A DNA stretch of 64,000 bases from assembly GCF_006345805.1 (NCBI RefSeq), contig NC_043006.1:27776001-27840000 (forward strand), in the 5' to 3' direction. The stretch is from Octopus sinensis. Lineage: Eukaryota. The notes under the pieces were generated by a model. That model worked only from the letters and a program-made list of their open reading frames with translations, did no database searches and was not told where the DNA came from. This document shows, piece after piece, positions 36,058 to 36,676 of the stretch (positions are counted from its first letter, which is position 1; each line of letters begins with the position of its first letter). The position numbers and the translations under genes were made by a program.

Positions 36058-36239
36058 TTTTGTTATTCCTTACTTTATTCGTGTAACTTTTTATCTTTAT
36101 TTGAATTTTTATCTGAATTATGGCTTGTACTGTAGAGTCCAGTGAAACTAATTCAAACATACCTAATTTAAACATACTTAAGGGTTTAAAAAAATTAAAA
36201 TATAGTTTATTGTATTGAACGTTGATGAAGTTATATAAG

Positions 36240-36334
36240 GGCCTGATGATTGGGGTAGTATCTTAAGAGGGGTTCCAGGGAAACACGGAGTGGTTTAGGA
36301 ACCCGAGGATGTACCTCATGAAACACGTGTTGCC
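36240..36334 (+). ncRNA. Type I hammerhead ribozyme (HHR-B), predicted GUU cleavage after 36331
   Basis: ggc-CUGAUGA-[~70-nt rod: uggggua/uaccuca, uaucuu/aggaug, ggguucc/ggaaccc]-GAAA-cacgug-UU-gcc. Stem III is the palindrome ACACGUGU. Stem I is only 3 bp and 10.1/11.1 is a U-U mismatch. Confidence 0.72.
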
Positions 36335-36449
36335 AAGTAATAAAACAGTAGGCATTTAAAATAAAAATTCTTTTTATTTGGTGAGATGTAGGGGTCTACT
36401 ATCTCTAAATTAAAATATATATAAGTATTTAATCTATTTCTATTCGTAT

Positions 36450-36511
36450 TTTCTACTGAAGAGGAAAAAATCTATTATGAGATTAATTCCGAAATAGATT
36501 CAATATAGAAA
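36450..36511 (+). ncRNA. Type I hammerhead ribozyme (HHR-C), predicted AUA cleavage after 36505
   Basis: uuucua-CUGAAGA-[ggaa aa aaucu auuaug agauu aa uucc]-GAAA-uagauucaa-UA-uagaaa. Stem I 6 bp, stem II 4+5 bp, stem III weak with one A-A mismatch. Confidence 0.68.
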
Positions 36512-36626
36512 TAACGAACTTTGTATTCAGTAGTGGGTATAATAATATGTGGAAATTGATGATTGAAAAGTCTGTTTTCAGCATATTGATATAGAAATAA
36601 TTTTCTTTTGCCCTTGTTTATAAGTT

Positions 36627-36676
<50 letters not shown>

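Follow-up and report, generated by a model that had tools for sequence, protein, structure and literature searches.

Hammerhead ribozymes of Penelope-like elements lie in the pLTRs, mostly as single motifs of truncated elements, as described in PMC4209133, where the legend of a supplementary table gives one hammerhead per pLTR. Several Penelope-like clades are described as having (TA)n targeting, 5' truncation, an optional tail of 30-40 bp and a pLTR intron, and (TA)n insertion is given as a trait of the Hydra, Naiad and Neptune types (bioRxiv 10.1101/2021.04.23.441226). Penelope-like elements also insert beside existing copies (PMC6765202). For a Penelope-like element of the anole, the RNA that mainly serves as template is reported to be the uncut one, and the start of reverse transcription lies about 85-92 nt beyond the cut (PMC11167929; the distance by subtraction). 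Terminons bear hammerheads in several regions (PMC7761336), and 235 hammerhead loci have been reported in the giant squid (PMC6962438). The second closely related system is that of the animal retrozymes, which have been proposed as pLTR derivatives (bioRxiv 10.64898/2026.07.22.740005) and whose known circles are described as mostly keeping a foldable ribozyme and arising from tandem units (PMC7229834). Our literature search, which covered titles and abstracts and whose scope did not extend to Lunse et al. 2017 or the PMC7229834 supplement, found nothing on the two families described below, on cephalopod two-hammerhead elements or on same-strand heterologous pairs.

The window, the whole stretch of 64,000 nucleotides of octopus DNA analysed here, is AT-rich animal DNA with microsatellites throughout. 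A preliminary description had placed at 36060-36628 one element with two different hammerheads that could release a 174-nt RNA. From the motifs, the seam between two modules, the lack of homology between these modules, their multi-copy status and their unequal abundance, all of which are direct observations, we consider it likely that the block consists of two unrelated, 5'-truncated Penelope-like terminal fragments that each carry a single hammerhead and lie stacked in the same (TA)n target.

The block, its motifs and its copies

Pfam matches on the minus strand to exons of Abi, namely Abi_HHR at 49124-49387 (E 4e-26) and SH3 at 28362-28571 (E 1.5e-18), bracket the block. This puts 36060-36628 in an intron, with the motifs on its plus strand running antisense to Abi pre-mRNA, as had been supposed. 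The block had also been described as lying between two (TA)n tracts. These tracts are present at 36040-36057 (a likely insertion target) and at 36630-36675, the latter a (TA)23 tract, neither of them assigned to a strand, and a third, internal TA run of 9 nt at 36415-36423, also strandless, had been overlooked. Because 307 of 5000 shuffles of the block contained a TA run as long as this one, its location at the seam of the two families, and not its length, is what counts; it is likely a relic of the target microsatellite. The 32-aa ORF at 36120-36215 had no Pfam match, and no further copy of the block was found within the window. Elsewhere on the plus strand, an uninterrupted 620-aa frame at 1-1863, which we take to resemble an Hsp110/HSPA4-type chaperone, is intronless in an intron-rich genome and is possibly one long exon or a retrocopy, and 12610-13320 holds a fragment of a Mariner-type transposase (Pfam Transposase_1, E 1e-25).

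The presence of two different hammerheads on the same strand, with predicted cuts after 36331 and 36505, was confirmed by reading and by a script. HHR1 (36230-36341, plus strand) and HHR2 (36443-36518, plus strand) both have a CUGANGA and GAAA core, an NUH triplet, stems I-III and open stem I ends, as type I hammerheads do. HHR1 lies in module A (36058-36414, plus strand), a terminal fragment of a first family that is multi-copy in four of the four runs aligned and is likely a Penelope-like pLTR end; HHR2 lies in module B (36422-36630, plus strand), a terminal fragment of a second family and likely a 5'-truncated Penelope-like pLTR end. When the block was shuffled by dinucleotides, one or more hammerhead motifs arose in 23 of 20,000 cases and a same-strand pair in 0 of 20,000, and the whole window holds 3 motifs against a mean of 0.18 in locally shuffled windows (60 shuffles, maximum 2), odds that are somewhat generous because the descriptor, which allows a mismatch at the stem II base and a long stem II, was composed after the motifs had been seen. 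Rfam returned no hammerhead match, with 0 at gathering score in the window and 0 among the 15 matches up to E=10 in 36000-36700.

Part of the block was found in 20 public runs (9 studies, 4 organism labels), at least half of its sequence words in only 1 of them, and none of the 20 runs is recorded as RNA. Four of the 20 were aligned at 80% likeness and gave 1738 (X1), 1259 (X2), 36 (X3) and 58 (X10) contigs; the records listed from them, to which all statements below on individual contigs, loose ends and variants refer, are 32 of 3,123 contig records, 24 of 293 loose-end rows and 40 of 98 variant rows. The block contigs were mostly 90-99% alike, X1 and X2 being DNA-sized runs and X3 and X10 perhaps RNA, and so many copies at 90-99% indicate that the block is dispersed repeat DNA. 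Searches with exact 22-base patterns gave 0 loci for HHR2 and for the 3' end of the block in metagenome contigs, 0 loci for HHR2 in viral contigs and 0 loci for the 3' end in prokaryote genomes.

The core of HHR1 is formed by CUGAUGA at 36243-36249 and GAAA from 36320 (36320-36323). Its stem II domain is 70 nt long (36250-36319) with a U.U mismatch (10.1-11.1) at the base, its stem III has 2 bp with a palindromic tetraloop (36323-36330), and its stem I has an inner helix of 3 bp and an outer helix of 5 bp (36230-34 with 36337-41). The stem III homoduplex has a predicted energy of -10.3 kcal/mol, and the strand is strongly self-complementary. The triplet here is GUU, a slower triplet for hammerhead cleavage; in the family, position 17 is A (GUA) in 58% (X1) and 60% (X2) of the depth.

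The variants of the HHR1 family were compared with the fold, using the 40 of 98 rows listed. Of the five changes listed for paired positions of stem II, four preserve the pairing, and a further four changes are located in loops; A>U at 36257 (33-53%) breaks a stem II pair, barring a compensating change among the unlisted rows. In the outer stem I, U>G at 36232 and A>U at 36339 have matching frequencies (0.47 and 0.47 in X1, 0.54 and 0.53 in X2, unphased) and would convert a U-A pair to G.U. None of the 38 listed variant positions falls on the 22 invariant core positions (P 0.15, not significant alone; unphased), and none of the 30 listed variants falls on the 33 core-proximal positions of HHR1 (P 0.021, for a set chosen after the data were seen). 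As far as sequence comparison goes, the family variation fits the HHR1 fold.

That HHR1 is a chance look-alike and HHR2 the sole real ribozyme motif is hardly credible. The inner stem I of only 3 bp, the U.U at the stem II base, the GUU triplet, the lack of an Rfam match and a fold no better than that of shuffled sequences (z -0.45) speak for a look-alike, but the family variants spare the core and mostly preserve the stems, and the axolotl HHR_Amex2, described with the same U.U stem II base and 2-bp stem III, does cleave (22% monomer cleavage in an hour; PMC7229834). Since a hammerhead so similar at these two places cleaves, HHR1 may cut to some extent, provided that the plus strand is transcribed.

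HHR2 has its core at 36456-36462 (CUGAAGA) and from 36491 (GAAA, 36491-36494), and the predicted cut after 36505 follows AUA. Its stem II has 4 bp plus 5 bp, its stem III 2 bp with a 7-nt loop, and its stem I 6 bp plus 5 bp; the stem III homoduplex has an energy of -2.5 kcal/mol. Just upstream on the plus strand, 14 of the 15 bases of 36426-36440 can pair with 36491-36505. The computed probability of this anti-core helix is 0.21-0.72 depending on context, and 9 of 2000 shuffles gave a helix equally strong. HHR2 is predicted to be held inactive by the 14-bp helix with this strand. A reading of HHR2 as type III, with the anti-core strand serving as stem III, was rejected by eye, as no stem I hairpin forms.

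In other module B copies, the preceding letters complete a splice donor of the GTAAGT type (loose ends in X1, X3 and X10), and 36600-36624 holds a pyrimidine tract with AG at its end. HHR2 may thus be placed wholly within a pLTR intron (36422-36624), with the locking strand immediately after the donor; among the contigs listed, none represented a spliced form of module B. Together, the locking helix and the apparent intron position suggest how such elements keep their template RNA uncut.

A third type I hammerhead is located at 34657-34729 on the minus strand, with an intact core, a GUC triplet and a palindromic 2-bp stem III. Placed in another microsatellite-flanked block (about 34470-34838), this hammerhead has the sense of Abi pre-mRNA and so might in principle cleave that RNA; the minimum-energy structure computed locally is a different, inactive fold. 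A possible, heavily decayed hammerhead-like core follows at about 34500-34545 on the minus strand, about 115 nt beyond the cut of the third hammerhead in the downstream direction; by eye it needs several changes and may be due to chance.

The seam between modules A and B

The seam (36414-36425) is reached by nine contigs among the 32 of 3,123 listed, and eight of the nine stop there. The left-hand contigs (records 7 and 8), both diverged A copies, break off at 36414, leaving 29 letters unaligned, and at 36423, leaving 4. The right-hand contigs (records 13, 14, 15, 24, 30 and 31) start aligning at 36418-36425; the four on the plus strand have 100, 13, 74 and 28 unlike letters in front, and for the two on the minus strand we infer the side of the unaligned remainder. 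A joint of record 27 (X3) implies an extra left-hand piece ending at 36423 (side 52). Among the 24 of 293 loose-end rows listed, loose ends before 36422 or 36425 were found in X1 (12 contigs), X3 (2) and X10 (2), and none was found behind 36414-36423. Other module B copies have a different upstream sequence and many continue beyond 36633, where 49 and 47 contigs run on with non-TA sequence.

Modules A and B show no homology to each other, with 271 of 300 shuffles scoring as high, and a reading as diverged tandem duplicates was rejected on this ground. They are also unequally abundant: the ratio of median summed depth of module B to that of module A was 5.5, 5.3, 4.7 and 19.5 in the four runs, with the tool's own warning that summed depth is no copy number. 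Summed depth crosses the seam without a drop in X1 (17,291 to 19,147) and X2 (2,172 to 2,083) and steps up at the seam in X10 (12.6 to 104.5). We had considered the continuous depth as a sign of one element and dropped this idea, as individual contigs stop at the seam.

The sole bridging contig listed is record 28, which has 1 difference in 282 letters (99.6%), no gap and the same TA length. It is probably this same locus in another individual, and since it bridges A and B, it argues against the join being an assembly error. The preliminary description took the two hammerheads as parts of one two-ribozyme element, a view that the unrelated halves and the eight of nine listed seam contigs stopping between them do not support. 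As to co-occurrence of the two motifs, record 28 is the one contig that joins them among the 32 of 3,123 listed, at 99.6% identity and probably from this locus.

It is conceivable, but in our view unlikely, that A and B became joined a single time, through stacking or a template switch, and that the joined unit later multiplied as a minor, non-autonomous chimeric retroposon bearing both hammerheads. Record 28 spans both cores, depth is continuous over the seam in X1 and X2, and bridging copies may exist beyond the 32 of 3,123 contigs listed. On the other hand, a bridge that is 99.6% identical and has the same TA length is what this locus itself would give, and the other eight listed seam contigs, including the diverged A copies of records 7 and 8, all stop there.

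Still less probable is a single Penelope-like family with two different pLTR hammerheads and fast-diverging spacers, in which one hammerhead would set the upstream RNA end and the other the start of the next unit, the 174-nt piece being discarded. Both ribozyme regions do occur with diverged upstream sequence (for HHR1, records 21, 22 and 27), as subfamilies would give, and hammerheads in several regions are described for terminons (PMC7761336). Furthermore, one 7-letter word of the spacer recurs, at a similar distance, in the X3 loose-end consensus before 36422 (2 contigs, agreement 0.67), which hints weakly that the sequence upstream of family B is related to the spacer. Against such a family, the A-side contigs end exactly where the TA run ends, whereas an A contig entering a shared B would be expected to run some way into B and not halt at the TA end. 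The B side is also 5-20 times more abundant, with the step of X10 located at the seam, and the table legend of PMC4209133 has one hammerhead per pLTR.

The predicted 174-nt RNA

The fragment between the two predicted cuts (36332-36505, plus strand) comprises the last 83 nt of module A, the 9-nt TA run and 82 nt belonging to module B. Its release as a linear or circular RNA had been predicted, and the geometry stands, in that double cleavage would free the piece. Among the 5 joints listed for the 4 runs, there was no back-joint from 36505 to 36332, although contigs cannot prove absence, and the spacer between the cuts was not enriched over its flanks. With mobile units that reach well past both cuts and no back-joint listed, the piece cannot be counted as a unit of either repeat.

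The 5' arm of HHR2 is unable to pair with the 3' arm of HHR1, and the HHR1/HHR2 stem III heteroduplex has an energy of +1.0 kcal/mol. Since the cross stems I cannot form, HHR1 and HHR2 make no heterodimer and a ligated circle has no hammerhead. A heterodimeric double hammerhead was therefore rejected, the cross stems I being unpaired and the heteroduplex standing at +1.0 against -10.3 (HHR1) and -2.5 kcal/mol (HHR2) for the stem III homoduplexes. The 174-nt circle lacks a ligation stem, has only 55% of its bases paired and is predicted to lie 5.9 kcal/mol above the linear RNA in folding energy, with z = -2.1 for the circular fold (9 of 300 shuffles). The active secondary structures have a computed probability of at most 3e-3, tertiary contacts not counted.

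We give very little credence to a functional cassette whose excised 36332-36505 RNA, linear or circular, would serve as an intermediate in replication or regulate Abi as an antisense RNA. Apart from the permissive geometry and the z of the circular fold, it can call on a length within the animal retrozyme range of about 170-400 nt and on the circularisation of ribozyme products by RtcB in vitro, both as given in PMC7229834. The missing joint, the unenriched spacer, the incompatible stems I, which leave neither a heterodimer nor a hammerhead at the circle junction, the lack of a ligation stem, the cost of circularisation, the small share of paired bases and the low probability of the active structures all weigh against it, as does the GUU of this HHR1 copy while GUA predominates in the family depth.

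Equally improbable is that the stacked ends act as a natural twin-ribozyme unit, in which transcription from an internal promoter of module A and a double cut would yield a 174-nt circle ligated by RtcB, and the A+B unit would spread as its own retroposon. On the modelled folds, such a ligated circle would hold no ribozyme and hence could not reopen. If true, this would show how retrozyme-like circular RNAs can be born in nature from a pair of heterologous twin ribozymes. We regard the predicted 174-nt RNA as probably coincidental, with no new system behind it, and, as far as structure prediction goes, low-level release of 36332-36505 could occur at this one locus.

Probable Penelope-like fragments and known hammerhead systems

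The TA-flanked block next to module B, module C (36677-36905, minus strand), carries a decayed minimal hammerhead with position 17 at 36777. Homology links module C to the stretch immediately upstream of an element at about 52740-55800 (score 74 against 27.4 +/- 3.7, 0 of 500 shuffles). This element, on the plus strand, is decayed and C-rich, with Pfam matches to RVT_1 (E 0.083) and then GIY-YIG (E 0.012), both below the cut-off; from these weak matches it appears to be a decayed Penelope-like element of RT/GIY-YIG type. A search of the Atlas with its RT-like frame returned only hypothetical and DUF8422 clusters, and a search of solved structures returned nothing. By virtue of the homology of module C to this element, at least one hammerhead block in the TA pile looks like a Penelope-like terminal fragment. 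Modules A and B show no resemblance to this Penelope-like end of the window (177 and 206 of 500 shuffles score as high), and we infer for them a link to an RT gene.

Three further features of the window were noted. Upstream of the element at 52740-55800 is a damaged minimal hammerhead with position 17 at 52885. At about 59840-59880 on the minus strand, another minimal-hammerhead-like motif of this kind has one core change and position 17 at 59847. The TA-flanked block at 33840-34223 has a long internal inverted repeat, by eye like the inverted Penelope-like insertions that have been described.

Modules A and B have several traits of pLTR fragments, being multi-copy and dispersed, with one hammerhead near the end and TA runs at the boundaries. 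The distance from cut to module end is 83 nt in A and 125 nt in B, given the seam as read from the contigs, and about 100 nt in module C, as against the roughly 85-92 nt between the cut and the reverse transcription start in the anole element. Under our preferred reading of two stacked terminal fragments, pLTR ends of two different Penelope-like families would have inserted successively into one (TA)n microsatellite. Each would have been reverse-transcribed from an RNA whose hammerhead stayed uncut, because the copy retains sequence on both sides of the cut, and fragment B, truncated at about 36422, would have joined the TA run that closes fragment A. In the parent elements, the hammerheads may be slow or homodimeric and trim tandem precursor transcripts. 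At this locus, both would be passengers, which we propose are tolerated because they face away from Abi pre-mRNA, and the 174-nt spacing would be an accident of stacking. The locus would enlarge the set of hammerhead-bearing repeats by two families, probably Penelope-like ones, and it cautions that insertions targeted to TA accumulate side by side and may pass for cassettes of several ribozymes.

The arrangement resembles the engineered tandem twister constructs for circularisation described in PMC7229834 in that two different ribozymes flank an insert and cleavage would leave 5'-OH and cyclic-phosphate ends. Unlike engineered twin-ribozyme constructs, it has no end-joining stem, its ribozymes are predicted to be weak or blocked, and the arrangement is apparently accidental. 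Tornado is a named twin-ribozyme construct for circularisation, with a ligation stem.

The block shares with animal non-LTR retrozymes, as these are described in PMC7229834 and bioRxiv 10.64898/2026.07.22.740005, type I hammerheads, low GC, a non-coding nature and an inter-cut distance in their size range, and HHR1 resembles the axolotl HHR_Amex2 in the two stem features given above. Unlike non-LTR retrozymes, the block has no tandem repeats of one unit, with no repeat of unit size found in it; its ribozymes are unrelated, its repeat units do not coincide with the cut-to-cut segment, and the junction of a 174-nt circle rebuilds no hammerhead.

The likeness to the minimal type I hammerheads of Penelope-like elements extends to the type I topology, the (TA)n context and the dispersed, high-copy, variable families. 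As in Penelope-like hammerheads, HHR1 has a long stem II and a stem III whose short palindrome suits homodimerisation, and the ribozymes lie about 80-125 nt from the fragment end. Unlike the minimal hammerheads, HHR1 and HHR2 both retain 2 bp in stem III and have a lengthened stem I, and the stem II domain of HHR1 has 70 nt. In contrast to full Penelope-like elements, no RT/GIY-YIG ORF could be linked to modules A and B. Finally, the close hammerhead pairs (about 100-700 bp) of the published account lie on opposite strands, whereas HHR1 and HHR2 lie on one strand and belong to two families.
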